Below are positions 5,930 to 44,294 of a stretch of 64,000 nucleotides of DNA, one piece after another. Every line of letters begins with the position of its first letter. Positions within the stretch are counted from its first letter, which is position 1. Position numbers and translations under genes: made by a program. This DNA is from Candidatus Moraniibacteriota bacterium (lineage in GTDB: Bacteria; Patescibacteriota; Minisyncoccia; Moranbacterales; GCA-2747515), in contig CAMZLB010000031.1 in assembly GCA_947311515.1 (NCBI GenBank), positions 922 to 64,921 on the forward strand. Direction: 5' to 3'. Below the pieces are notes generated by a model that was not told where the DNA came from, ran no database searches, and saw only the letters and a program-made list of their open reading frames with translations.

Positions 5930-6619
5930 TTATAAATGTTCTTTACTAATAATATTCCAAAGAATTGTATCTAAGTGTAATTCTGGGACATTTAATTTAA
6001 ATGAAATAGTTTTGTAAAAATCTTTAATATTTACTTTAGAATTTTTATTAAATTTTTTATATATTTTTATAAGTCTACTATCTATCGGAATCCCTAAAGA
6101 AGTTGGAAAAATTTCATTATAATTAAAAACATTTCTAGCGGAATAAGAAAACATTTTAACAGCAAAAACAATAGTTTTTGCATCTTTTTTTTGTTTCATT
6201 ACTTTTGATAGATCCAATGCAAAAATATCCATATTTTTATAGTAAAATTCGAATGCTTTATTATTTAACATAGAATAATTATCTATAAATTTATCTATTC
6301 TTTTAATTTTAATATTTACTAATCTTTTATTATTTTTAGAATTAGTTAAAAAAATAATCAAAACCTCTTTTACTTGCTGTAATGTATTCACATCCTTATC
6401 CTTTGTGTACTTATAAAATTCTTCCCAATAATCCTCACCATTTCCAGATAATTGATAACAAATAAGTGCATTTAAAATTACTAACTGAAAATATATTTTA
6501 TTTTTGAAGTTTTTTTCTTCGTATAATTTATTTACAGCTATAAATTGTCTATCAGATTTTTCAATTTTTAATATTTCGTTTAAAGAGTATTCTTTGAGAA
6601 TTTTATATAATTGTTCCAT
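5930..6619 (-). CDS. Possible AGOG-family N-glycosylase/DNA lyase-like protein (HhH)
   Basis: 229 aa, all-helical character. Candidate catalytic Lys (AVKMFSYSAR) about 27 aa before LGIPIDSRL (HhH-Asp-like). Assignment from memory, unverified. Confidence 0.3.
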   Translation of the reverse strand: MEQLYKILKEYSLNEILKIEKSDRQFIAVNKLYEEKNFKNKIYFQLVILNALICYQLSGNGEDYWEEFYKYTKDKDVNTLQQVKEVLIIFLTNSKNNKRLVNIKIKRIDKFIDNYSMLNNKAFEFYYKNMDIFALDLSKVMKQKKDAKTIVFAVKMFSYSARNVFNYNEIFPTSLGIPIDSRLIKIYKKFNKNSKVNIKDFYKTISFKLNVPELHLDTILWNIISKEHL

Positions 6620-6694
6620 TTTTGCAAAATTAAAATTAAAGACAGACTCTGTAAAGTATGTTAATATAGATATATAATATATTATTTTACTAGT

Positions 6695-8395
6695 ATGAAA
6701 TCAATAAGGCAAGTTTTACTTATTATCTTTGTTATAATTTTTCTACCCTATTATTCTTATGCACAAGAACGAATAATAAAATTTGATGTTGATATAACAA
6801 TGAATCCTAATTCAAATATAGATATAACAGAAACGATAAAGTACGACTTTTCTATACAAAAAAAACATGGAATATACAGAACTATTCCTGTTAAATACAA
6901 AACTGACTTAGGACTAAGAAGAAACCTAAAAATAAAAAATATTTCCGTAGTTGATGAAATGGGTAACTCCTATAATTTTAAAAAAATTAATGATGGTAAT
7001 AACATTAAAATACGTATAGGTGACGCCGATAAAACAATAACAGGAACTCATACTTATGAAATATCTTATACTATACTCGGTGCTATCAATTACTTTGACA
7101 ATCATGATGAGCTTTACTGGAACATTACTGGAAATAATTGGGATCTTCCAATTGATTCTGTGAGTGCAATGATTCATTCTTCCGGAATTGAAAAAATTGA
7201 ATGTTATAAAGGGACTGAAAATAGCAAGGAAACTTGTAATAAAAAGTTTTTTAATGAAACTTATGCAGATTTTAAAGATTTAGATTTTTCTCCTAATGAG
7301 GGAATGACAATTGTAGTAGGTATATCCAAAGGAATCATACAAGAAATGACTACTATTGAAAAAATATTGCAGTTTTTACTTAATAATTCACTCGAACTTC
7401 TATTTCCTATTGTTACAATTATTGCTCTATTTACTCACTGGTGGAAATTTGGACGAGACTTTAAATCTGACAAATCTATAGTTCCTACATGGGAAATTCC
7501 AAATAATTTACGACCTGGTGAACTTGGTATAATAATTGATGAAACTTTTGACTCAGAAGATTTTTCTTCCATTGTAATTGACTTAGCTGTGCGTGGCTAT
7601 ATCACTATAAAACAAATAAATACTAGTGTTTTATTTTTAAAATCATCCGACTATGAATTAACTTTATTAAAAAATAATTCTGATATATATTCAGATAATT
7701 CACTAGAACAATATGAGCGAGACTTCTTAGTAGCATTTTTTGGTAGTCAAAAAAAAGTCTTAATTTCGAGTAAAAAACAGAAATTTAGCAAAACATATCA
7801 AAAGTTAACATCACAAGTTTATGAAAAAATTAGTGGAAATTACTTCACAAAGAATCCTAAAAAAGTTGCTTTAAAGTATGGGTTTTATGGTATAATTTTT
7901 ATAGTTTTTATAAGTATAATTGGTAGTATATTCAATAATTTAATCCTGATAATAACTGGCTGGCTTGGAGGAACTTTTATAATCATAGGATATGGAAAAC
8001 TGATGATAAGAAGAACCCACAAGGGAACTGAAACAAGAGATCAAATAGAAGGACTTAGGATGTATCTCAAAACTGCCGAAAAAAGACAATTAGAATTCTT
8101 AAATGCCCCAGAAAAAAATGCAAAGCATTTTGAAGAAATGTTACCATATGCAGTAGCACTAGGCGTTACAAAAGAATGGGGAGAACAATTTAATGATTTA
8201 ATACAAAAAGAACCTAAATGGTTGAATAATGGCGCTAACGATTTTAATGCATCAACATTTGGCTCTGCTATGTATAATTTTACTAAATCAAGCTCTAGTT
8301 CCTTAAGTTCTTCCAAGGCTTCTAGTAGCGGAAGTGGCTTCTCTGGCGGTAGTTCAGGTGGAGGTTTTGGTGGTGGAGGTGGTGGTAGCTGGTAA
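6695..8395 (+). CDS. DUF2207-family membrane protein with Gly/Ser-rich C-terminal tail
   Basis: Signal/TM MKSIRQVLLIIFVIIFLPYYSYAQ. Large extracytoplasmic N-terminal domain, central TM helices. C-terminus SSSSLSSSKASSSGSGFSGGSSGGGFGGGGGGSW is typical of DUF2207. Confidence 0.55.
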   Translation: MKSIRQVLLIIFVIIFLPYYSYAQERIIKFDVDITMNPNSNIDITETIKYDFSIQKKHGIYRTIPVKYKTDLGLRRNLKIKNISVVDEMGNSYNFKKINDGNNIKIRIGDADKTITGTHTYEISYTILGAINYFDNHDELYWNITGNNWDLPIDSVSAMIHSSGIEKIECYKGTENSKETCNKKFFNETYADFKDLDFSPNEGMTIVVGISKGIIQEMTTIEKILQFLLNNSLELLFPIVTIIALFTHWWKFGRDFKSDKSIVPTWEIPNNLRPGELGIIIDETFDSEDFSSIVIDLAVRGYITIKQINTSVLFLKSSDYELTLLKNNSDIYSDNSLEQYERDFLVAFFGSQKKVLISSKKQKFSKTYQKLTSQVYEKISGNYFTKNPKKVALKYGFYGIIFIVFISIIGSIFNNLILIITGWLGGTFIIIGYGKLMIRRTHKGTETRDQIEGLRMYLKTAEKRQLEFLNAPEKNAKHFEEMLPYAVALGVTKEWGEQFNDLIQKEPKWLNNGANDFNASTFGSAMYNFTKSSSSSLSSSKASSSGSGFSGGSSGGGFGGGGGGSW

Positions 8396-17330: not shown

Positions 17331-17712
17331 ATCTTTTATATAATTTTCTTTAGTAAGATTTAAAAAGAAAGGTTTAGTGTAATAATTTATAATAAATGAT
17401 AATTTACTATTATATGTCAAATTTAAATTCCCCAATTACTAGAATTTCAGTTTTTAATTTAAACATAATATAGGAATAAATATGCTCAGTCCCTACGATA
17501 ATTTGAATTATTTACTAATGTTTATTTTTTTTACAAATAACAAGTATTTCTATTCCTAAATTTGAGTAATTTTTAAATTTAAATTAAGTTTTTAACAAAA
17601 AACGCAAAATATTACGTCTCCACTACATATCCAAAAGCTCTTTTCTCTTTTGAAATATGTTTATTCATCAATACTTTGTTAGTATATCATATTATTTTTA
17701 AACAAAGAAAAA

Positions 17713-17756
17713 GAGAAGATTTTTTTATTGTGTAATTTTACACAAAACCTTCTCTA
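17713..17756 (-). terminator. Rho-independent terminator-like nested inverted repeat downstream of 17760..18230 gene
   Basis: AGAGAAG...TTGTGTAA-tt-TTACACAA...CTTCTCT followed on the minus strand by a T-run. Confidence 0.45.
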
Positions 17757-17759
17757 TTT

Positions 17760-18230
17760 TTAGTAGCGTCGCCCTCCTAGCCTGTCTAATATTTCAGATA
17801 CAGATCTCGATATAGATCTTCCGGAATCTATTATGATTCCTCTACTAGCCTCTGTGGCAGCACCACTTATGGTATTTCTGTTATGTTCCGCTTCTACTCT
17901 AACCCAAGATTCAGCTGTATATGCAGCAGCCGCAGAGTTTCTTATATCCTGTGCTTCCCGCGCTTGAACCTCTCTCCAATCTGTGCCATAGGTACTCTCA
18001 TATCGTGATGAGCGAGCACTCATCACAGATTGAGGATTATTCCAGTGACTATTTGGATATCCACTCATACTAATAGGAGTTCCAAGATATTGTTGAGATA
18101 ATCCTCTTGTGTCTCTATTGTATGTATCCTGTACACTCCCATTATTTGGATATAAAGCAGTACATGCATTAAAAGTTAGAGTTAGTAAAACTAAAGCTGT
18201 TGAAAATAATGGTATATTTCTCTTTCTCAT
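17760..18230 (-). CDS. Small secreted protein/possible lipoprotein, compositionally GC-rich (foreign-looking)
   Basis: Signal peptide MRKRNIPLFSTALVLLTLTFNAC. S/R/A-rich mature part. Local GC visibly far above the 28% background (e.g. gtagcgtcgccctcctagcctgtc, gcagccgcagag). Confidence 0.5.
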   Translation of the reverse strand: MRKRNIPLFSTALVLLTLTFNACTALYPNNGSVQDTYNRDTRGLSQQYLGTPISMSGYPNSHWNNPQSVMSARSSRYESTYGTDWREVQAREAQDIRNSAAAAYTAESWVRVEAEHNRNTISGAATEASRGIIIDSGRSISRSVSEILDRLGGRRY

Positions 18231-32979: not shown

Positions 32980-33100
32980 AATATAATATTACCATATTTA
33001 CAAATAAATAGTACTTTACAAGAAACACTTATTACATTATAATATATACATGACTTTGTCATAATTGTTATTTAAAAATAAAAAATAAAAAGGATTAACC

Positions 33101-33817
33101 ATGCAAATAAATCATATATTATTTGACATAGACGGCTGTTTAACAACTAAAAAATATGAATCTTTAGACTTAAAAAGTCTAACCTACATAAAAGAACTAC
33201 TATATGAAATACATTGCTCAAAAAGTTTCTGTACAGGCAGAAGCCAGCCATATGTAGAACTAATGGGGCAAATATTAAACATAAAAGCCACAACGGTTCC
33301 AAATATTTTAGAGCATGGTTGTATTTTAAATACAACCACTGATAGTAGTGATTTTTGTGTTATAAATCCAAAAATAACACAAAAAAGCATATGGGAGATG
33401 AGACGCATAAGAGATACTTTAAGTAGGAATTCCAAATGCGTACTTGAACCTGGAAAAGAAATATCCTTATCTTTAAATCCTGTAACCACCATGGAGGACT
33501 TAGAGAAAGTTGTGAACAATATTCCTAATATTCATAACTTCAGTGTGAAGATATCAGCGGATTCCATTGATATCTCTCCAGAAGGGATATCAAAAGGAGG
33601 AGCAATCCTTGAGGTATTCAAAAATCCTAACGGCATACTTGCCATCGGAGACTCAGAGGGGGATCGAACTATGTTAGAAATAGTCGAATTCCCTGCATGT
33701 CCAGCAAACGCATCTCAAAGAATTAAAAAATTAGTTCTTTCAAGAAAGGGATACGTATCAAACAAAAACAATGCTGAAGGAGTTTTAGACATACTAAAAC
33801 ATTTCTTCACTCAATAG
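33101..33817 (+). CDS. HAD-superfamily (IIB/Cof-like) phosphatase
   Basis: Motif I ILFDIDGCLT. Motif IV GDSEGDRTML. Cap domain between. Confidence 0.7.
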   Translation: MQINHILFDIDGCLTTKKYESLDLKSLTYIKELLYEIHCSKSFCTGRSQPYVELMGQILNIKATTVPNILEHGCILNTTTDSSDFCVINPKITQKSIWEMRRIRDTLSRNSKCVLEPGKEISLSLNPVTTMEDLEKVVNNIPNIHNFSVKISADSIDISPEGISKGGAILEVFKNPNGILAIGDSEGDRTMLEIVEFPACPANASQRIKKLVLSRKGYVSNKNNAEGVLDILKHFFTQ

Positions 33818-33839
33818 ACCCTTAATTTAATAGGGTCTA
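33815..33839 (+). terminator. Stem-loop overlapping stop codon of HAD gene (TAGACCCT-9 nt-AGGGTCTA) then U-rich
   Basis: 8-bp stem seen directly. Weak T-tract after. Confidence 0.35.
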
Positions 33840-33902
33840 TTATATTGATTAAATCTATTATATTATATACAATATATATGATAATAAACTTAATGCCAAA
33901 CT

Positions 33903-34625
33903 ATGTCAGGACACAATAAATGGTCTTCAATCAAACATCGCAAAGGTGCTCAAGATGCGAAACGTTCAAAAATTTTTTCTCGTATAGCAAAAATGATAAT
34001 TGTCTCAGCTCAACAAGGCGGTGGGGATCCTGAAATGAATAATTCTTTAAAACTACTATTACTACAAGCAAGAAAAGCTAATATGCCTAAAGATAATATA
34101 GAAAGAGCTATAAAAAGAGGCACAGGAGAAGGTGGAGATATTATAAAATTTGAAGAGGTATCCTATGAAGCTATGGGACCTGATGGTTCTGCTATAATAA
34201 TAAATTGTACAACGGATAATACTAACAGAGCTTTAACCGAAGTAAAAATTGCTCTCAAAAAAAATGGTGGTAAATTTGTACCTAGTGGTAGTGTAAGTTT
34301 TCAGTTCAAACATTTAGGCCATATTGTTATATCTACAGATGATTTAGACAGTGCAGAGCTATCCGCTATAGAAGCAGGTGCTGAAGATATAGAAAGAGGT
34401 GAAAATGAGCTCTTAGTAATAACAGAGCCAACAGAATTACATACAATTCGTGAAAATTTAGAAAAAGATGGATTTACGATAGAAAAAGCTGAACTTACTT
34501 ATACTTCACAACAACCTGTAATTTTATCTGAAGCTTCCTTAGAATCATTCATCAAGCTCAAAGAAGCTCTTGAAGATGTTGATGATGTTCAAGATATTTT
34601 CGACAACGTAACCAATTCTAACTAA
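33903..34625 (+). CDS. yebC: YebC/PmpR-family transcriptional regulator
   Basis: MSGHNKWSSIKHRKGAQDAKRSKIFSRIAK... canonical YebC N-terminus. 240 aa. Confidence 0.9.
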   Translation: MSGHNKWSSIKHRKGAQDAKRSKIFSRIAKMIIVSAQQGGGDPEMNNSLKLLLLQARKANMPKDNIERAIKRGTGEGGDIIKFEEVSYEAMGPDGSAIIINCTTDNTNRALTEVKIALKKNGGKFVPSGSVSFQFKHLGHIVISTDDLDSAELSAIEAGAEDIERGENELLVITEPTELHTIRENLEKDGFTIEKAELTYTSQQPVILSEASLESFIKLKEALEDVDDVQDIFDNVTNSN

Positions 34626-34638
34626 GATTTGTTCAATA

Positions 34639-36396
34639 CTATTGCATCTCGTATATTCCCATATCAACCGTCAAAACACTATCACCATCTCCGTCTATAA
34701 TTCTAGTATTTTCATCTGCGTCAAAAACTGGTAAACCAATTAAAGCAGTATTATCCCCTGAATCAATTGCAGGCGAGGAACTTAAAGTATGATAATCATC
34801 AATTGCTTGGAATAACGGATCACATGATAGTAATTTAATTCCTGTTGGCAAAGTAAATCCATTATTCCAAAAAAGCGAATTTGAAAAATTAAAATTTAGT
34901 GGGTAAGTTCCTGCTTGATAATTTGTTATATTTGTAACTATACTATTTATCATCTTATTTAAATTGTTAGTTCTGTCTGTATCAAAAAGATAATTACCAC
35001 CATCTATTGTGCAATTTACAAAACTATTGTCATATACTTCAGATTCTCTGTTGTAATCCATAAAATTAATAACAGCTCCTATCGTATCCTTAAAAAGACT
35101 ATTGTAAAATATATTATTATTTCCAGTATACATTGCATCATCATCTTCACCTATAACATCTAAAAAAATTACAGCGGAATATGTACCAATAGTTTTTACA
35201 TTTTCAAATAAATTATTATTTGCTCCATCTCTGACCACGAATCCGTCACCGCCTATTGCTGTGCAGTTTTTAAATATATTATTTTGTACTCCACTATGTC
35301 TGACATAAAATGCCGCATTATCTAAATTTTTTGCGATACAATTCTCTATTAAGTTTCCTTCGCCAATCCCTTTTATACCAATACCCGCTCCTCCATGATC
35401 CAAATTTCCAACACGCTCAATATAAGAATTTTTTACCACATTATTATTTCCATGTATATGAATATAATAATCAGTAGAAGCGTCATACTCATCATCGTCA
35501 CAATAAACTTTTACACTATCCAATGTATTATTATCTCCATATATATCAATTCCCTCTGAACCACCATTTACTATAATTGAATTTTTTATAAGATTTTCAC
35601 TTCCATGATTCATATTAATTCCACTACCTGAATATCCATGAATATCTCCAAATGTTTTTCCTATAATGTTTTCTACAAAATTATACTTTGTTTCAGTAGA
35701 CCACCAATGAACTCCTACTTCATAATTTGTAATTTGAAAATTTTTGATATGTACATATTTGTTACCACTCAATTCAAAAGCTACTCCAGATGTTCTATCT
35801 CCTCCATTAAGCGTAGGCATAACGGATGAGTTTACACCATCTCCATATTGCCACCAATCATTTCCAATCACATCCCCAGGGTATAACTTACACCCTTCAA
35901 ATGTAATATTTTTAGATTCTGACACTCCACTATTTGCAAATGTTATATTTTCACTTCCATAATTTCCTGATTTCACATATACAATATCACCTGCATTCAA
36001 TGTTTGAGCTGCATTCTGAATAGTTTTCCATGGAGCATCTACAGATAATCCATCATTTAAATCACTACCTTCTGTGTCAACATAATAAACATTTTGATAA
36101 TGTGCTTCACACCATTGCGTACCGTCCATACTAAGACCTAATGACTCTCTGAGTATTAACTGTGCGTCTACCGTATTAGACACACCATCGCAATTAACAT
36201 CTCCAGTTACAAAAGAATTTTTCCAATCAGTCGATGACATATCCAAATTTAATGACTTTCTCAAAACAAGTATAGCATCCATTGAATTAGTACTTGAATC
36301 AAAATTCACATCATGTCTTATAGAAAAGGCACTTACTTCATTAAATGAAAATATTATTGCAAACACGATACATAAGATAGATATCCTTAGAAGCAT
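34639..36396 (-). CDS. Secreted right-handed parallel beta-helix protein with two N-terminal dockerin-like repeats
   Basis: Signal peptide. DVNFDSSTNSMDAILVLRKSLNL and GDVNCDGVSNTVDAQLILRESLGL resemble dockerin-type Ca-binding repeats. Then many N-x-x-x-N/G-rich PbH1-like turns (NNVVKNSYIERVGN, NIFKNCTAIGGDG...). Confidence 0.5.
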   Translation of the reverse strand: MLLRISILCIVFAIIFSFNEVSAFSIRHDVNFDSSTNSMDAILVLRKSLNLDMSSTDWKNSFVTGDVNCDGVSNTVDAQLILRESLGLSMDGTQWCEAHYQNVYYVDTEGSDLNDGLSVDAPWKTIQNAAQTLNAGDIVYVKSGNYGSENITFANSGVSESKNITFEGCKLYPGDVIGNDWWQYGDGVNSSVMPTLNGGDRTSGVAFELSGNKYVHIKNFQITNYEVGVHWWSTETKYNFVENIIGKTFGDIHGYSGSGINMNHGSENLIKNSIIVNGGSEGIDIYGDNNTLDSVKVYCDDDEYDASTDYYIHIHGNNNVVKNSYIERVGNLDHGGAGIGIKGIGEGNLIENCIAKNLDNAAFYVRHSGVQNNIFKNCTAIGGDGFVVRDGANNNLFENVKTIGTYSAVIFLDVIGEDDDAMYTGNNNIFYNSLFKDTIGAVINFMDYNRESEVYDNSFVNCTIDGGNYLFDTDRTNNLNKMINSIVTNITNYQAGTYPLNFNFSNSLFWNNGFTLPTGIKLLSCDPLFQAIDDYHTLSSSPAIDSGDNTALIGLPVFDADENTRIIDGDGDSVLTVDMGIYEMQ

Positions 36397-36429
36397 AATA
36401 ATTAATATACATTTATTTTTAATATATTT

Positions 36430-37059
36430 TCAAGTTCTTTTAAACCTATTCACGTCATTCTTTATCATATTTATAATTTCTGGAAATTTTTCTACTCTGA
36501 AATGTCCATTTTTATCATTATATGTAAAAAATTTAGCATTATTTAATTTCTCTTCATAAGCATCTTTGTTAACAATAGGTACAATATCATCATCTTCTGA
36601 AAATAATAGGTACAAATTCTTTGCACAACTATCTAATTTAGATAGTTCCTTACCTAATATAAATCCACCACACGTTAAGTGATCCGACAATCCTTCACCA
36701 AACGGCGGAGCTATCAGGAATACAGATAATATATATTTTGGAAATTTATTTTCTGATAAATATTTTGCAAGAAATATTCCTCCTAGGGAGCATCCAATCA
36801 AAATTACATTATCCTCAAGTAATATGAAAAATCTTTCAAAATTAATTTTCCACTCTTCATATTTAGCATTTTCTCTTAGTGGCATTCTTGGACTTATAAT
36901 ATCAAAACACTTACCCAACTCATAACTTAAATATTCCTGATTCCATTTCTTTTTTTCCTGACTTGATATATTTCTTGTTTTTAAATAATTTAAATAATCA
37001 CTTTCTCTCTTAAAAACTGTTCCTCCGTGAATAAAAAATATTTGTGTTTTTTTCTCCAT
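36430..37059 (-). CDS. Alpha/beta-hydrolase fold serine esterase-like protein
   Basis: GCSLGG nucleophile elbow. 209 aa. Confidence 0.5.
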   Translation of the reverse strand: MEKKTQIFFIHGGTVFKRESDYLNYLKTRNISSQEKKKWNQEYLSYELGKCFDIISPRMPLRENAKYEEWKINFERFFILLEDNVILIGCSLGGIFLAKYLSENKFPKYILSVFLIAPPFGEGLSDHLTCGGFILGKELSKLDSCAKNLYLLFSEDDDIVPIVNKDAYEEKLNNAKFFTYNDKNGHFRVEKFPEIINMIKNDVNRFKRT

Positions 37060-37221
37060 AGTTTTTTAAATGATGTCTAAAATAAACTTGTCCCTAAATA
37101 AGCTTTTAAAGGAAATTTGATGAATTCTTGCTACAGAGCTATTAAAAAATTATTAATAATTCCCCATAGTTATTAACAGATAAATCTTCTGTACTGCAAT
37201 AATCATAGTAAGTTTACTGAT

Positions 37222-37556
37222 TCCAAAAAAGCCTCAAAATGGTGATGTTCTGTAATATAGCAATTTACAACAACTTTAAACTTATTAACTCCATACTTTT
37301 CTAAAAATTCTAGTAAATTTATTATTCTTATACCTATATTTATAATAGTACAATTATCATTATATACAAAACATTCTTCTAATCCATCTACAAGTAATTC
37401 ATCTATCTCTATAGCAATAACCCTTTTGCCAGTTTAAAAAAGTTTTTTACTAGAGTTAATTCTCCTATATTATAACTTAACCCTCCAATACATCTTAACA
37501 TATACTATGTCTTCCAAGATGCCTTCATCATATAAAAATTTTATCTAATAGATTTA
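37222..37556 (-). pseudogene. Degraded duplicate of the 5' third of rsmA/ksgA
   Basis: 37222-37556 aligns by eye to 39617-39985, e.g. shared ...tagtacaattatcattata...tcttctaatccatctacaagtaattcatctatctctatagcaata.... Translation retains VIAIEIDELLVDGLEE...YNDNCTIIN but has stops and loss of the GPGGG SAM motif. Confidence 0.7.
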
Positions 37557-37726
37557 TAATACTAGTAATTATTCTAAATAAATCTATAATTAATAAGCTT
37601 AAAGATACCTATCTTTAAGAGATGACAAAATAAAACATTTAAAAACTTCGGAAGCAGATAAAAAATGCAAATAGACTTTTTTTATTAAAATGTTATTATT
37701 AAAATAATAAAAATTTAAAAATTAGT

Positions 37727-38941
37727 ATGTTTAAACCAGAATTAAACTTAGCAAAGCAAATAATTGATAAATATGGCACACCTATTTATGTTACAGATAC
37801 ACAAACCATAAAAGATAAATCTAGCTTAATAAAAAATGCATTTTCTAACTTAAATATGAAAATTTTTTATGCTATAAAAGCTAACTTTAATCCTCATATA
37901 GTAAAAATAATAAAAAATAGTGGAATTTATGGAATTGATGCTGTATCAGTAAATGAAATTATATTAGCTCTTGAACTAGGATACACTTCAGAACAAATAA
38001 TTTTTACACCAAGTAATCCAAGTGATGATGATATGCTACAAGTTGGAAAATTAAATATATTACAAAATTTAGGGTCTATTTCTGAAATAAAAAGATTTGG
38101 AAAAATGTTTAAAGGATGTGAGATATCCATAAGAATTTGTCCAGAACTAGGTGCTGGAGAATCTAAAAAAGTTACAACTGGAAATATAGAAAGTAAATTT
38201 GGTTTATCAATTAGTGAGATAGACAAAGTAAAAACTATATGTAATAAATATAATATAAAAATAGTTGGCATTCATAGTCATATTGGATCTGGATTTTATA
38301 ATTCAAAAATTTTTAAACAATCTGTTACCGCAGTTTGTAATATAGCTAAAAAATTTAAATATATTAAATTTTTAGATTTTGGAGGTGGTTTTGGAGTTCA
38401 ATATAATCCAAATAACATTCCTATTAATTTAAACGATTTTGCAACTTCTATAAAATATACTATTAATAAATTTACAAAATCTTATAAACATCCAATAGAA
38501 TTAAGAATTGAACCTGGTAAATTTTTAGTATCTCAATCTACTGTCTTATTAACAAGAATAACCACTATAAAAGAAAAAGGTAATATAACCTTTGTTGGAG
38601 TTGATTCTGGATTTCACAATCTAATTCGTCCTGCTATGTATAATGCCTATCATCATATTATAAATTTATCGAAACAAAATAAAAATAAAAAGTTAGTTCA
38701 AGTCGTAGGAAATGTATGTGAATCTGGTGATATTTTTAATAAAAAAATTAAACTCAATGATCCACAGGAAGGCGATATACTAGCCATATTAACTACAGGA
38801 GGTTATGGCAGTAGTATGAGTTCAAACTATAATCTACATAACTTTGCTCCAGAAGTTTTAGTTACAGATAGAAAATTCAAACTAATAAAGAAAAAACAAA
38901 CTTTTGAGCAAATTATGTCTAACTTTATTGACTATAAGTAA
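37727..38941 (+). CDS. lysA: Diaminopimelate decarboxylase (PLP fold-III decarboxylase family)
   Basis: FYAIKANFNP, GGGFGV, CESGD motifs. 404 aa. Confidence 0.75.
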   Translation: MFKPELNLAKQIIDKYGTPIYVTDTQTIKDKSSLIKNAFSNLNMKIFYAIKANFNPHIVKIIKNSGIYGIDAVSVNEIILALELGYTSEQIIFTPSNPSDDDMLQVGKLNILQNLGSISEIKRFGKMFKGCEISIRICPELGAGESKKVTTGNIESKFGLSISEIDKVKTICNKYNIKIVGIHSHIGSGFYNSKIFKQSVTAVCNIAKKFKYIKFLDFGGGFGVQYNPNNIPINLNDFATSIKYTINKFTKSYKHPIELRIEPGKFLVSQSTVLLTRITTIKEKGNITFVGVDSGFHNLIRPAMYNAYHHIINLSKQNKNKKLVQVVGNVCESGDIFNKKIKLNDPQEGDILAILTTGGYGSSMSSNYNLHNFAPEVLVTDRKFKLIKKKQTFEQIMSNFIDYK

Positions 38942-39195
38942 CTTATGCGCAAATTATACATATTTCATGTTTGACAATATTTTTATTTTGTTTATGGTCT
39001 AATTGAGAGATTGCAAGTAATTTCAAATAATAGAGTAAGAATTATTTTTGTACTTTATTAATTAAAATGTAAAAGTAGCTTTCTTTCTGCTAATAACCAA
39101 AAAACTACAAACTATTTTCTTTATTTTTATGAGAATCTATCTAAAATCTATTGTTTTTTCGAAATTTTCGTATTTTTAGACAGGTTCTAAAAAAA

Positions 39196-39987
39196 TTATA
39201 ATATTTTATATAATTCTTTCCACTTATTAACAGATAATTCTTGTGCTCTAACTGTTGACTTAAGATTTATTGATGCTAGTTTTTTTTCTATAATCAATTT
39301 ATCTAATTTCAAGCTATTTGATAAATTGTTTACAAGTTTTTTTCTCTTTGCACAAAAACCTGACTTCACAATTTTAAAAAACTTTTTCTCATCAACTTTT
39401 TCAAATTTTCTAATTATAGTTGATATTTTTATAACAGCACTATCTACTTTTGGAATTGGCTCAAATGACTCAGCTTTAACTGTAAATAAATACTCTGGCA
39501 ACCCATAAAATTGCACAGAAACTGCAAGAATACTCATATCCCCAACTCTAGCACATATACGTTCAGCAACCTCCTTCTGCACCATAACAATCATATCTGT
39601 AGGCTGAGTAATTAATTCCAAAAAAAGTCTCAAGATTGATGACGTTATATAGTAGGGCAAATTTGCAACAACTTTATATTTATCAATTGCATACTTTTCT
39701 AAAAGTTCTGGTAAATTTATCCTTCTTATGTCTGCATTTATTATAGTACAATTATCATTATACTCAAAACGCTCTTCTAATCCATCTACAAGTAATTCAT
39801 CTATCTCTATAGCAATAATCCTTGCACCAGTCTGCACAAGTTTTTCAGTCAGAACTCCTCCTCCTGGACCAATTTCTATTATAACTTCATCTTCTGATAT
39901 ATCTGAAACATCTATCATATCCTCTAAAACACCTTCATCATGCAAAAAATGTTGTCCAAGAGATTTTTTATGTTTAATTTTTTTCAT
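39196..39987 (-). CDS. rsmA: 16S rRNA (adenine1518/1519-N6)-dimethyltransferase
   Basis: KKSLGQHFLHD, EIGPGGGVLTE, NLPYYITS. Confidence 0.9.
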   Translation of the reverse strand: MKKIKHKKSLGQHFLHDEGVLEDMIDVSDISEDEVIIEIGPGGGVLTEKLVQTGARIIAIEIDELLVDGLEERFEYNDNCTIINADIRRINLPELLEKYAIDKYKVVANLPYYITSSILRLFLELITQPTDMIVMVQKEVAERICARVGDMSILAVSVQFYGLPEYLFTVKAESFEPIPKVDSAVIKISTIIRKFEKVDEKKFFKIVKSGFCAKRKKLVNNLSNSLKLDKLIIEKKLASINLKSTVRAQELSVNKWKELYKIL

Positions 39988-40020
39988 TATATTTTATCTA
40001 ATTTTTCAAAAAAGAAAAAA

Positions 40021-40139
40021 GAGATTGGGTTTTGTGTGTAGTTTTGGTTGATGATGGAGATGGGGTTACTTCTGTACTATATTTAAATAAAGTACACAAG
40101 TAACCTCCTCTCCAATCATTTCAAACTACTTCCAATCTC
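40021..40139. repeat. About 120-bp imperfect inverted repeat (nested hairpin) between clpP and rsmA
   Basis: Outer GAGATTGG (40021-40028) / CCAATCTC (40132-40139). Inner GGGGTTACTTCTGTACTATATTT / AAATAAAGTACACAAGTAACCTCC. Locally GC-richer than flanks. Confidence 0.45.
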
Positions 40140-40205
40140 TTAATTACATTATAAATAACTATGTTATCCTTGTCAATAAGATTTTGTGGATAAACTGTGC
40201 ATAAC

Positions 40206-40799
40206 TTATCTTATAATTTTATCAACTAATCCATACTTAACAGCTTCCTTAGCGTCTAGATAATTATCTCTATCTGTATCTTTTTCTATTTTCGAAACTT
40301 TTTTCCCAGTATGTTTCGCTAGAAGCTTATTTAATAAACTTCTAGTTTTCAAAATATGTTTTGCATGTATATCTATATCACTAGCCTGTCCTTGTGTGCC
40401 TCCTAGTGGCTGATGAATCATAACTTCTGCATGAGGTAATATCTTGCGCTTACCCTTTGCTCCAGAAGTCAGCAAAAAAGCTCCAGCACTAGCTGCCATA
40501 CCCACGCAAACAGTAGAAACATCTGGCTTTATATGCTGAATAGTGTCATACATTGCAAGAGCACTAGAAACTGAACCTCCTGGTGAATTTATATACAAAG
40601 TTATATCTTCCCTAGGGTCCTGAGCTGTCAAAAATAGTAGCTGAGCTATAATTATATTAGCCACTTCATCATTTATCTCACCTGTAAGAAATATAATCCT
40701 ATCCTTAAGGAGTCTAGAATATATATCATATACTCGTTCCATATTTCCAGACTTTTCTATTACAGTTGGTATAAGATAGTTACTGTTTTGTTGTATCAT
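40206..40799 (-). CDS. clpP: ATP-dependent Clp protease proteolytic subunit
   Basis: [34 protein letters not shown]. Ser-His-Asp triad context. Confidence 0.95.
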
Positions 40800-40802
40800 A
40801 CT

Positions 40803-42101
40803 TTAATAACTAATAATCTCATCAAAAGTTTTCTTATTCAACATTGTCATCTTCGTATAATTATATAATCGCTGCGTATCTATATTACTTTCCATATCTT
40901 CCATGCCTTTATACTTTGCTAAAACTTTATTCATTTCAGTCTCTATTTCTTCAGTTTTGACTTCTATTTTCAATTCTTCACCAAGCTTTGTTATAATAAG
41001 TGAACCTACTATCCTATTTGTAGCTTGAGGAGTCCAATCTTTTTGCAAATCATTTCTATTTTTTCCTATTTTTTCCAAATGATCATCTAAAGCTACACCA
41101 CTCATCTGAAGTTGTTGTTCCATTTCGCTAACCATAACATCCAATTCCTCTTGAATCATATTTTTTGGTACTTTTACATCCATTTTTTCTATAAGTGTTT
41201 CCAATATAGAAGTTCGTTTTTTTTCTATTAATTGATCTTCTCTTTCTTTTTGCATCCCCTCTCTCATATTTTTCTTAAGGTCATTCAATCCTTTTATATC
41301 CTTTCCTAAAGTTTTTGCAAAATCATCATCTACCTTTGGTATTATTCTTTCTTCAACAACTATCAATTTAACTTCAAATGTCGCCTTTGATCCAGCTAAA
41401 TGTTTTGCATGATAATCCTTAGGAAATTCTAGTTCAAATACTTTCTCATCATCTTTTTGCATCCCTATAACTTTATCTTCAAAGCCAGGTATAAATGTTC
41501 CACTACCTAAGACTATAGTGTGTTTTTTGCTCGTTCCACCTTCAATTACAACACCCTCTTTCTTCACAGTAAAATCAATTTTTACAGCATCTCCTTTTCT
41601 TGCTTTTCTATCAACTTCTTTCAATTCTACCCTGGACTCTGCAAGTTTTTTGAGCTCATTGTCTACATCAGAATCTTTAATTTCTGTATTTTCTTTTGCA
41701 TTTTCTTTATTGATTTCTTTTATTATTTTTTTCCAATCTTTTGGCAAGTTAATTTCAGGAATAAGTGAAATTGTCATATCAACTTCCACCTCATTTCCTT
41801 CTGCAATTTTTTTAACTTGCACTTCTGGCGATCCTGCAAATTTATAATTTCCTTCCTTTGCAATCTCATTATACTTTTTAGTAAGTTCAATATTTACTAT
41901 CTCAGCAAGTATCTGAGGTTTATCCACCTGAGAGCTAGCAACATCAACAGGAACATGACCTTTTCTAAAGCCCTTCACTGATACATTTTTTGATGCTTTT
42001 TTTACAGACTCATTAAAGTCGTTTTCTAAATCACTCCATGGAATTTTAAAATTAACCAAAATTTCCGTTTCTTTTTCTTCTATTTCATGCGACATATTCA
42101 A
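40803..42101 (-). CDS. tig: Trigger factor
   Basis: GFRKGHVPVDV signature. PPIase-like middle domain. 432 aa. Sits immediately upstream of clpP. Confidence 0.9.
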   Translation of the reverse strand: MNMSHEIEEKETEILVNFKIPWSDLENDFNESVKKASKNVSVKGFRKGHVPVDVASSQVDKPQILAEIVNIELTKKYNEIAKEGNYKFAGSPEVQVKKIAEGNEVEVDMTISLIPEINLPKDWKKIIKEINKENAKENTEIKDSDVDNELKKLAESRVELKEVDRKARKGDAVKIDFTVKKEGVVIEGGTSKKHTIVLGSGTFIPGFEDKVIGMQKDDEKVFELEFPKDYHAKHLAGSKATFEVKLIVVEERIIPKVDDDFAKTLGKDIKGLNDLKKNMREGMQKEREDQLIEKKRTSILETLIEKMDVKVPKNMIQEELDVMVSEMEQQLQMSGVALDDHLEKIGKNRNDLQKDWTPQATNRIVGSLIITKLGEELKIEVKTEEIETEMNKVLAKYKGMEDMESNIDTQRLYNYTKMTMLNKKTFDEIISY

Positions 42102-42118
42102 TAAATTTTTAAAAATAA

Positions 42119-42664
42119 TTACTTAGTTTTTCCAAACTTTTCTTCGTATAATACAATAGACTTTTCAACTGCTAAAATTGCATCCTCTTTTCCTTTGTAT
42201 CCTTTAATTACAACCTCACCCTTTTCTCCTTTTTTAAGTTCTTTGTATGTCTCAAAAAAGTGAACATACTCCTTAAGCGAATGTTTATTCAAATCAACTA
42301 AATCATGTACATCATCCCATCTTTTATCGTCTACTGGAACTCCTATGACTTTATAATCTGATTCTCCACCATCAATCATTTCCATAATTGCAATAGGCCT
42401 CACCCTGACAAGTATCCCAACATTTAAAGGAAATGTAGCAAGAACAATAACATCTAAAGCATCTCCATCCTCCCATAAAGTCTGTGGCACATAGCCATAA
42501 TCAAAGGGATATGGATGAGAAGAATAATTTGCTCTATCAAGTGCAATTAAACCAGTGTCTTTATCGATTTCATATTTATTTGGAGAATTCTTTGGAATTT
42601 CTATTATTACATTTATTTCTTTTGGTATATTTTTTCCTCTTGATACATCATGCCATAAATTCAT
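42119..42664 (-). CDS. ppa: Inorganic pyrophosphatase (family I)
   Basis: EIPKNSPNKYEIDKDTG, DGDALDVIV. Confidence 0.9.
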   Translation of the reverse strand: MNLWHDVSRGKNIPKEINVIIEIPKNSPNKYEIDKDTGLIALDRANYSSHPYPFDYGYVPQTLWEDGDALDVIVLATFPLNVGILVRVRPIAIMEMIDGGESDYKVIGVPVDDKRWDDVHDLVDLNKHSLKEYVHFFETYKELKKGEKGEVVIKGYKGKEDAILAVEKSIVLYEEKFGKTK

Positions 42665-42711
42665 ATTTTTATTATTAACTATTATTTTATAAAATCAAAT
42701 CTACACAACGC

Positions 42712-43923
42712 CTATTCACTAACTGGTGACTTAATTCTACTATCTTCTCCACTCTCATTTTCCACATCTAAATCCCATCCAGTTAATTTTACAGCAAGTC
42801 TGACATTTTGACCCCGTTTTCCAATTGCAAGTGACAACTGATCATCTGGTACAATAACCTTAGCTCTCTTCATGTCTCTATCTAGTTCAACTGAGATTAC
42901 TTGCGCAGGAGATAATGCCGATGTTATAAATTCTTCCATGTTTGCATTCCATTCTATAATATCAATTTTTTCTCCACCAAGAGACTCTATAACAGCATTT
43001 ACTCTCACACCTTTTTGTCCAACGCATGAACCCACTGGATCTATGTCTTCGTCTTCTGTATAAACTGCTATTTTACTTCTTGAACCAGCCTCCCTAGAAA
43101 CTGCCTTAATTTCAACTGTTCCTGCAAATATTTCAGGAACCTCCATTTCAAATAAGCTCCTAACCATTTCTGCATGAGTTCTTGAAAGTTTAACTCCTGG
43201 TCCTCTTGAATCTATCTCTACAGCCTCTATATAAACTTTAATATATTGTCCTACATCATATCTTTCGCCTCGCACCTGGTCTCTAGGAAGTAATACCCCT
43301 ATAGATTTTCCAAGATCTATAAATACTGTTTTACCTTCTATTCTGTGAACTTTTCCATTTACAATTTGCCCCTCTTTCTCTTTGTTCTCATTATAAAGAA
43401 TTTCTCTTTCTGATTCACGAACTCTTTGAATTATAACTTGTTTTGCAGTTTGAGCTGCTACACGCCCAAAATCTGTATATGTTGGCAATGGTTCTTCTAT
43501 GCTATCACCTAATTCTATATTTTCGTCGCTCTTAAGTGCCTCACTTAATAAAATATCTCTTTCCTCATTAAATCTAGGCAGTTTAATTTCTTCTTTTTCC
43601 GAGTCTTCTGCTTCATTCTCATTTAAAAATTTTGAATCTTCACCTTCGATCTTATTCTCTTTATTATCCTCATCTGCTTCTGAATCAATAAATTCACGAG
43701 TTGTCTCATCTACCACTTCTTTTACAAGCCAAAATTTCATATCCCCATTAACACCAGTAAGTTCTGCACGTATATTTTGACCACGTTCCCCATATTCCTT
43801 TTTGTATGCTGCTGCAAGAGCTGCCTCCACAGTAAGAAGAAGACTTTCCTTATCAATACCCTTTTCTTCTGCAAGCGCATTTATTGCTCCAGTGAAATCT
43901 CCAAAAGAATTTTGTTCTTTCAT
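42712..43923 (-). CDS. nusA: Transcription termination/antitermination factor NusA (with acidic insertion)
   Basis: N-terminal NusA domain, S1, two KH (GQKGVRVNAVIESLGG, GKRGQNVRLAVKLTGW). About 70-aa D/E-rich insert at residues about 70-140. Confidence 0.9.
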   Translation of the reverse strand: MKEQNSFGDFTGAINALAEEKGIDKESLLLTVEAALAAAYKKEYGERGQNIRAELTGVNGDMKFWLVKEVVDETTREFIDSEADEDNKENKIEGEDSKFLNENEAEDSEKEEIKLPRFNEERDILLSEALKSDENIELGDSIEEPLPTYTDFGRVAAQTAKQVIIQRVRESEREILYNENKEKEGQIVNGKVHRIEGKTVFIDLGKSIGVLLPRDQVRGERYDVGQYIKVYIEAVEIDSRGPGVKLSRTHAEMVRSLFEMEVPEIFAGTVEIKAVSREAGSRSKIAVYTEDEDIDPVGSCVGQKGVRVNAVIESLGGEKIDIIEWNANMEEFITSALSPAQVISVELDRDMKRAKVIVPDDQLSLAIGKRGQNVRLAVKLTGWDLDVENESGEDSRIKSPVSE

Positions 43924-44294
43924 ATTTTTTTTAAAATCTAATTAATTTCTATAATATTTTATACTACTTATCTCTTAATGTGTTTCAAGAAAAATCAATA
44001 TAGGGTAAAAAAAATGAGAGTTCTTTCGAATCCCTCCTACCCTTATTATTATTATAACAAAAATCTATACTATGTCAATAAAATACAAAAGAATATCTAA
44101 TAATATAGATAGCCATAATAATTTAGAGTCTGGGAACTTTAGACACAAATTTGCATGTAGTCTTATATTGATTCTTGATTCATTTACATCTATTAACGCT
44201 GTTATTATTACTTTATTTTAATCTAATAAAAAATCCAGTTATTGCAAGTGTAATTCCTGTAATTATAAATACATTGTTTTAGTTTTTATAATTT

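Follow-up and report, generated by a model that had tools for sequence, protein, structure and literature searches.

How does a compact bacterial genome come to hold the ruin of a second copy of a housekeeping gene, next to a gene that its relatives lack at the same place? This question is raised by a 64,000-nt stretch, hereafter the window, of contig CAMZLB010000031.1 (positions 922 to 64,921) from Candidatus Moraniibacteriota bacterium (assembly GCA_947311515.1), which carries an intact rsmA (ksgA) gene and, on the other side of lysA, a disrupted rsmA-like sequence, here named psi-rsmA or psi. Genomes of Patescibacteria (candidate phyla radiation, CPR) are small and gene-dense, and gene gain in them is poorly documented; our literature search on pseudogenes and gene duplication in CPR found nothing on point. 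As a pseudogene, psi is of an ordinary, well-known kind with no expected phenotype, and its value is the record of rearrangement that it keeps. We consider it probable that psi is a non-functional relic of a duplication of about 1 kb, comprising the clpP-rsmA spacer (S) and rsmA, which took place in this lineage and was tied to the gain of lysA. The locus would then be an unusually readable record of one gene gain, made up of a duplication, a microhomology junction to lysA, an inversion, a microhomology deletion, AT-biased decay and likely gene conversion.

A dead copy of rsmA beside lysA

The intact parent gene occupies 39196-39987 on the minus strand as an open reading frame (ORF) of 263 amino acids (aa), which scored 230.9 bits against TIGR00755 in a profile search (cut-off, 171). 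Its copy, psi-rsmA, lies on the same strand beside lysA, extends from 37142 to about 37578 (437 nt) and shows homology to rsmA that begins near the start codon and reaches the stop codon. A previous sequence-only reading of this DNA had described a pseudogenised duplicate of the rsmA 5' region at 37222-37556, upstream of the intact gene. The pseudogenised duplication and its strand and place beside lysA were seen correctly, but the extent was too short at the 3' end (37142) as well as the 5' end (about 37578), the copy is not limited to the 5' region, and it lies downstream of rsmA in the gene sense because rsmA is on the minus strand.

The similarity itself is beyond doubt. When the 667-nt gap between the hydrolase gene and lysA (37060-37726) was searched against the whole window by blastn, a single strong non-self match was obtained, 37220-37555 against 39615-39966 (76.7% over 352 columns, E=7e-68), and a global pairwise alignment of psi and rsmA gave 303/385 identical ungapped columns (78.7%), in line with the identity of roughly 75-80% over about 330 bp proposed before. 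The 45-nt exact run quoted at that time is present at 37375 and 39773 and belongs to a longest exact run of 46 nt (37375-37420 = 39773-39818). All other non-self matches of the gap were short and AT-rich, with E of at least 2e-5 and many between 0.003 and 5, so that the identity is not at the background level that the sequence-only reading had named as its refutation.

It is evident that psi cannot encode a protein of the RsmA/KsgA family of 16S rRNA (adenine1518/1519-N6)-dimethyltransferases (TIGR00755, PF00398) and their Erm paralogues, though it is derived from this family (77-79% identity in DNA). The RsmA protein matched psi at 56% identity over aa 14-115 (tblastn, E=3e-30) with two in-frame stops, which agrees with the stops reported earlier, and the frame was lost beyond. 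A 10-nt deletion in psi takes out GAAATTGGTC, coding E-I-G-P at the start of the GPGGG loop that binds S-adenosylmethionine (SAM); the remainder reads TAGGAGAATTAAC, and SAM-binding motif I (G-x-G-x-G; here EIGPGGG) is broken, as the earlier claim of a lost loop implied. Besides this deletion, psi has at least six more frameshifting indels of 1-5 nt, that is, at least seven in all. No uninterrupted ORF of about 260 aa is present in psi, nor is there any ORF of 40 aa or more on its strand. The C-terminal rRNA-binding domain is also absent from psi, the region for residues ~139-248 being deleted and only the last ~15 codons being left.

Psi consists of two blocks on the minus strand. The 5' block (37186-37578), which contains the 46-nt run, corresponds to rsmA codons ~1/8 to 138; homology is clear inward of 37555 and fuzzy across 37556-37578. 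The 3' block (37142-37185) corresponds to the last ~15 codons with an aligned TAA stop at 37142-37144. Here, 37142-37191 gives a collinear 51-nt match to the rsmA end (39195-39245) at 75% with the stops aligned, and the local alignment with the 3' 380 nt of rsmA scored 40 against 20.4±3.0 for shuffled sequences (0/500). Moreover, in a sister strain (GCA_947313845.1), whose contigs L034 and L035 are 97.3-98.5% identical to the window and have the same arrangement, the junction sequence CAGAAGAATTATCTGTTAATAA equals the rsmA 3' end at 21/22 positions. Therefore, the copy once covered practically the whole coding sequence, beginning at about the start codon and running through the stop. An internal deletion of ~334 nt (rsmA 39240-39573) separates the two blocks, which are joined at 37185/37186 at 7-nt near-repeats, GCAGAAG and GCACAAG, and by its sequence this deletion looks like a microhomology-mediated one. 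MAFFT alignment misplaced the 3' piece, and a deletion-aware alignment was used instead.

The contigs L001-L021 from the RsmA scan of genome contigs were useless for synteny, all being at most 45% identical. The best named RsmA matches (55-58% identity) were from Moranbacteria and the Parcubacteria group, and the genome is a metagenome-assembled genome (MAG) of Patescibacteria. Four closer relatives were obtained via the protein database (RsmA P0002, 81%; P0003, 71%; P0004, 67%; P0005, 65%). In all four (L022, L023/L024, L029 and L031), the gene order is nusA-ppa-tig-clpP-rsmA facing yebC-HAD, without lysA, and only 63-73 nt separate rsmA from yebC. The block of 4,570 nt that lies between the yebC stop and the rsmA stop in the window (34626-39195), with psi and lysA in it, is absent from them. 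This arrangement upholds the suggestion that the copy marks a rearrangement joining lysA to the rsmA-clpP-tig genes; what was missing from that suggestion is that the spacer was duplicated too and that the 4.57-kb block also carries hydrolase and beta-helix genes.

Thus, an intact parent, disabling lesions, absence from outgroups and, as described below, lack of purifying selection were all found, and psi is a dead duplicated, non-processed pseudogene of rsmA. A processed (RNA-derived) copy had been considered because psi seemed to end at the borders of the coding sequence, and was dropped after the promoter-bearing spacer copy turned up. An Erm-type origin was rejected, as psi is far closer to the resident rsmA. 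Comparisons of the regions upstream of psi and rsmA, of the regions downstream of them, and of the L022 rsmA-yebC spacer with both downstream regions gave no significant similarity.

The spacer element S and its decayed copy S'

The functional clpP-rsmA spacer S (39988-40205, minus strand, 218 nt) bears a promoter, boxes and a hairpin, and is strongly conserved: its mean column identity is 81% in five lineages, as against just 65-81% identity of their RsmA proteins. It contains two TTATNCACA boxes and a perfect TTGACA-17-TATAAT promoter. The boxes are adjacent DnaA-box-like nonamers, TTATCCACA and TTATGCACA (40185-40204, minus strand), directly upstream of the promoter; at the same place, L022 has two perfect TTATCCACA boxes, and L029 and L031 have TTATTAACA or TTATCAACA. 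Across the window, TTATNCACA was matched 10 times against 4.7±2.2 expected.

The hairpin of S is rod-like and about 130 nt long (-52.8 kcal/mol, z=-10.2), and its terminal T-run stands ~15 nt ahead of the rsmA ATG. It was located in the clpP-rsmA spacers of the window (39995-40150, minus strand), L022 (4091-4241), L023 (9840-9993), L029 (4040-4192) and L031 (2396-2549). Of its 46 pairs, with 95% of cells paired, 9 show compensatory changes, compared with 4.1±1.4 in shuffled alignments (0/500) and 0-2 in slid controls. A scan of 33000-44000 with Rfam 15 at E<=1 gave only sub-threshold matches to miRNA hairpins (32.5 bits against a gathering score of 79). We regard the hairpin as a candidate for a novel RNA that is specific to this clade of Patescibacteria, be it a leader, an attenuator or a small RNA. 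It was the duplicate that brought to light this RNA element upstream of rsmA, which is structured, conserved and unannotated and possibly the more interesting object of the two.

The decayed copy of the spacer, S' (38942-39165, plus strand), starts right after the lysA stop, ends at the equivalent of the rsmA start codon and is inverted relative to psi. When the inserted block was compared with the loci of the relatives, 38940-39112 (plus strand) matched the L023 spacer at 69% over 178 nt (blastn, E=2e-11). S and S' are 72% identical, with an alignment score of 67 against 21.9±2.9 (0/1000 shuffles), and S' is full-length but decayed: it retains DnaA-box-like repeats, a promoter TTGACA-16-TATGGT and an eroded rod-hairpin RNA, the fold of which is gone (z=-0.3), with 32/46 pairs kept versus 42-45/46 in functional copies. 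A covariance model (R1) built from the five functional clpP-rsmA spacers found S' at 40.6 bits (E=4.6e-5), and the same element was found in the sister strain. It found no convincing copy elsewhere in the 64-kb window and none in L001-L021 or in the lysA-bearing L032 and L033, its convincing matches being only the clpP-rsmA spacers of this clade and S'. One weak match of R1 in the window (17688-17764, minus strand, 26.9 bits, E=0.043, GC 0.19) probably reflects an AT-rich hairpin formed by chance.

How S' and psi fit together can be read from their ends. S' begins right behind the native stop of lysA, whose C-terminus FIDYK is common to its homologues, and the lysA and clpP 3' ends resemble each other over a short TATAAG(A)TAA stretch, at which the junction falls. 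Psi begins within ~20 nt of the rsmA-start-codon position at which S' ends, and the region upstream of psi has no resemblance to S. From this meeting of the S' end with the psi start, S' and psi appear to be complementary halves of one duplicated unit of ~1 kb [S + rsmA], mutually inverted around lysA. Together they leave ~660 nt of dead DNA (the 437-nt rsmA copy and ~220-nt S') in a compact CPR genome.

Descent, decay and rival explanations

From which rsmA did psi descend? With L023, L029 and L031 as outgroups, 20 informative sites group psi with the rsmA of the window, 6 group the latter with L022, and 1 groups psi with L022. With a strict outgroup, psi shares 7/14 of the derived states of the window and 0/4 of those of L022. 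These site patterns indicate that psi arose after L022 had branched off, from the rsmA of this lineage or of a very close relative.

A comparison of the window with the sister strain shows differences at 21/373 positions in psi (5.6%), at 3.6% in the lysA-rsmA spacer including S', at 1.4% in functional S, and at ~2.4% (77/3154) in the third-codon positions of eight neighbouring genes. Thus, psi evolves without constraint, at least as fast as silent sites do between the sister strains. When polarised against rsmA, the changes in psi fall 13 versus 7, i.e. both strains changed. GC-to-AT changes number 46 and AT-to-GC changes 32 on a sequence of ~30% GC, so that GC-to-AT is dominant per GC site.

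The decay is uneven along psi. A core at ~37250-37450 (minus strand; ~209 columns, limits approximate) matches rsmA at ~86% identity and the flanks at 62-66%, with 32/209 mismatches inside and 77/183 outside, a contrast reached by 0/300 permutations. The core is also closer to every relative (78% to L022, versus 65% for the psi 5' flank), although conservation among the intact genes is lower in the core (82%) than in the 5' flank (92%), and therefore the core is several-fold 'younger' than the flanks. The probable cause is gene conversion, with the intact rsmA at a distance of 2.4 kb as the donor. In the in-frame core, ~12 non-synonymous and ~3 synonymous differences from rsmA were counted by eye. 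The start of L034 and the end of L035 (window 37329 and 37407) fall inside this core, as commonly happens when an assembler breaks at a repeat; the core of the sister strain may be even closer to rsmA. By rough Jukes-Cantor scaling, the duplication would, judging from the flanks, be about ten times as old as the strain split, and the core about five times as old. Events at the locus can be dated relative to the strain split and the species split, and the relic gives a local estimate of the neutral rate.

Taken together, these features can be arranged into a history. A second [S-rsmA] unit would have been made, and lysA would have become attached directly to its S' end at the TATAAG(A)TAA microhomology; the unit may have arisen by Campbell-type single-crossover integration of a circular fragment, or by a tandem duplication capturing lysA at its junction. 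An inversion would then have parted S' from its rsmA copy, and the latter, without a promoter, would have decayed by AT-biased mutation and deletion until a core of ~200 nt was re-homogenised by gene conversion from intact rsmA. Two routes to the present order can be proposed. In Route A, the single crossover or the tandem duplication with captured lysA would first have given the order clpP-S-rsmA-lysA-S'-rsmA'-hydrolase, followed by an illegitimate inversion of [lysA-S']. In Route B, a [lysA-S'-rsmA'] cassette would have been inserted in inverted orientation at the S/rsmA junction, followed by homologous recombination between the inverted S copies, and the present psi would then be the original gene. 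Both routes fit the data, which do not separate them. After these events the relic would have no function of its own and serve at most as spacer DNA, possibly as promoter-like sequence, for lysA and the hydrolase operon.

Several points weigh against this history. At the breakpoints proposed for the inversion, inverted repeats are not detectable. An intermediate arrangement turned up in no genome, so that the inversion, the route of duplication and the order of events are reconstructions, and two exact-pattern metagenome scans (for the psi/rsmA core and for the conserved motif of S) gave no matches. The hydrolase and beta-helix genes may have arrived earlier than lysA or in the same event. The lower decay of the psi core could reflect selection, and the contigs of the sister strain lack 37330-37406, within the core. 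Moreover, the 5' limit of psi is blurred over ~20 nt, so that the fit of the S' end with the psi start is approximate.

Other explanations of the locus fare worse. A chance or low-complexity likeness is the obvious suspicion in a window of 29% GC with so many short AT-rich matches, but it has practically no probability against a match that is ~60 orders of magnitude beyond any other non-self match, contains the long exact run, and follows RsmA collinearly and in frame. As little can be said for an assembly artefact, such as a chimera or collapsed repeat in the MAG. Both contigs of the sister strain do break off within the psi core, a common behaviour of assemblies at repeats, but the copy is 21-23% diverged from rsmA and hence is not a collapsed or duplicated read set. 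In addition, L026, a 17.6-kb contig of the same strain from another sample, spans the whole region with the same block at 99.994% identity, L027, L028 and L036 confirm the rsmA-S'-lysA side, and the arrangement is seen in independent assemblies (L026, L027, L028, L034, L035 and L036); we regard an artefact as virtually excluded. The proposal that only the first ~120 codons of rsmA were duplicated would explain why the strong blastn match covers only rsmA nucleotides ~22-373. We judge it improbable, as the 3' sequence of psi matches the last ~50 nt of rsmA with the stop (0/500 shuffles; 21/22 in the sister strain) and the upstream spacer was duplicated too.

Similarly improbable is a foreign rsmA or erm-type gene from a distant donor, which would have come by horizontal transfer on a fragment with lysA and the hydrolase gene and then died. 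The block is lineage-specific, the closest lysA homologue (73% identical, in L032) stands in an accessory region beside hydrolase homologues, and the informative sites in the psi flanks are ambiguous (4 versus 4), all of which would suit such a transfer. On the other hand, psi as a whole groups with the rsmA of its own genome, at 20 sites versus 1 and 6, and shares window-specific derived states with it, S' copies a spacer element found only in this small clade, and rsmA-like sequence is absent near lysA in L032 and L033. The donor would have to be a very close relative, hardly distinct from a local duplication. We find it very unlikely that the relic is functional, with the core regulating lysA or rsmA as an RNA or DNA element, or with S' sending an antisense transcript into rsmA. 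Such a role would account for the well-kept core, for the S' promoter match that is kept at 10/12 positions and points at the rsmA 3' end, and for the 136 nt between psi and the lysA start, which differ at 1 site between the strains. However, the psi flanks and S' diverge between the strains at or above the silent-site rate, the fold of S' is lost, no ORF remains, promoter-like matches in the region are not enriched (29 versus 24.5±5.2 expected), and gene conversion is a simpler account of the core. Equally little credence is given to a recombination module, in which the inverted S and S' around rsmA and the direct rsmA repeats around lysA, their core kept alike by gene conversion, would flip rsmA between two promoters or excise lysA, now or once, or in which an antisense transcript started by S' would still run into rsmA and thereby adjust how much of this ribosome-maturation enzyme is made in a minimal genome.

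Compared with known systems, the relic of a duplicated [S-rsmA] unit resembles other duplicated pseudogenes of bacterial housekeeping genes in its intact parent nearby, in the stops, frameshifts and internal deletion of the copy, and in its AT-biased decay at a neutral rate and absence from relatives. It differs from them in being kept in a very small, gene-dense Patescibacteria genome, where quick deletion of relics is expected, in that the leader was co-duplicated and the copy split, with part of it inverted around a newly gained gene, and in being a mosaic of decay ages, which suggests ectopic gene conversion. With respect to Campbell-type integration, psi (37142-37578) and rsmA (39196-39987), both on the minus strand, are direct repeats flanking lysA, and the copy with the native upstream region is functional while the promoter-less one decayed. 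Unlike the product of such an integration, however, the repeats are not contiguous and collinear, S' being inverted on the other side of lysA, so that one more inversion, at the least, has to be assumed; there are no plasmid, phage or integrase genes here, the hydrolase and beta-helix genes lie outside the repeats, and neither a circular donor molecule with a homologous segment plus cargo nor an intermediate genome was found.

An integrase island at the 3' end of a conserved gene is another model to be compared. The lineage-specific cargo starts exactly at the rsmA 3' end and an rsmA repeat lies inside the block, but the repeat is a whole gene with its leader rather than a short 3' att site, and it lies in the middle of the block rather than at its far end. 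Among the ORFs of 40 aa or more in 34626-39195, the three taken as genes have Pfam and NCBIfam matches of other kinds (given below), so that no integrase, transposase or other gene for mobility was found, though no tRNA search was made. An att-type duplication from an integrase island was rejected, for want of an integrase and because the repeat is the whole gene.

Other genes of the block and its surroundings

Apart from psi and S', the block holds three genes. A gene for a beta-helix/dockerin-like protein (34639-36396, minus strand; PF22842/PF13229) is followed by an alpha/beta hydrolase gene (36430-37059, minus strand; PF00561, with PF06821 in homologues), and lysA (37727-38941, plus strand) encodes a diaminopimelate decarboxylase of 404 aa (TIGR01048, 376.7 bits against a cut-off of 297.9). 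The other six ORFs of 40 aa or more in the block are short (54-114 aa) and lie wholly within the beta-helix, hydrolase or lysA genes. LysA is intact, and the window and the sister strain differ in it at 5, 1 and 8 sites in codon positions 1, 2 and 3, respectively; it is under purifying selection.

The neighbourhood of the closest lysA homologue in L032 is unrelated to that in the window, though ~87 nt upstream of lysA can be aligned between the two loci. Two hydrolase homologues are present in L032 (52-56% identity), a frameshifted one directly upstream of lysA (1659-2245) and an intact one 2.5 kb downstream (6191-6811). Other Patescibacteria therefore carry lysA together with this hydrolase family in accessory regions.

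Over its N-terminal ~150 residues, the beta-helix protein (34642-36396) shares 35% identity with the N-terminus of a surface protein of 1260 aa in L023 (446-898), whose gene is located upstream of nusA. Judging from this similarity, the shared N-terminus may be a secretion or anchoring module.

Outside the block, a HAD-family hydrolase gene (33101-33817) differs by 9.1% between the window and the sister strain, at all codon positions and with an indel, whereas the flanking yebC and polA differ by 0.7-1.5%. This suggests that the allele of the HAD gene was replaced by recombination with a more divergent lineage. In L028, a 1.4-kb NCBI contig, the end (1349-1387) is a 39-nt exact inverted copy of window 39393-39431, inside rsmA, and is most likely an assembly fold-back artefact. 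Finally, the plus strand of the window is richer in C (11575) than in G (7078) and in T (24260) than in A (21087); most genes of the window are on the minus strand, and the GC skew is negative almost throughout 30-45 kb except over the plus-strand genes.

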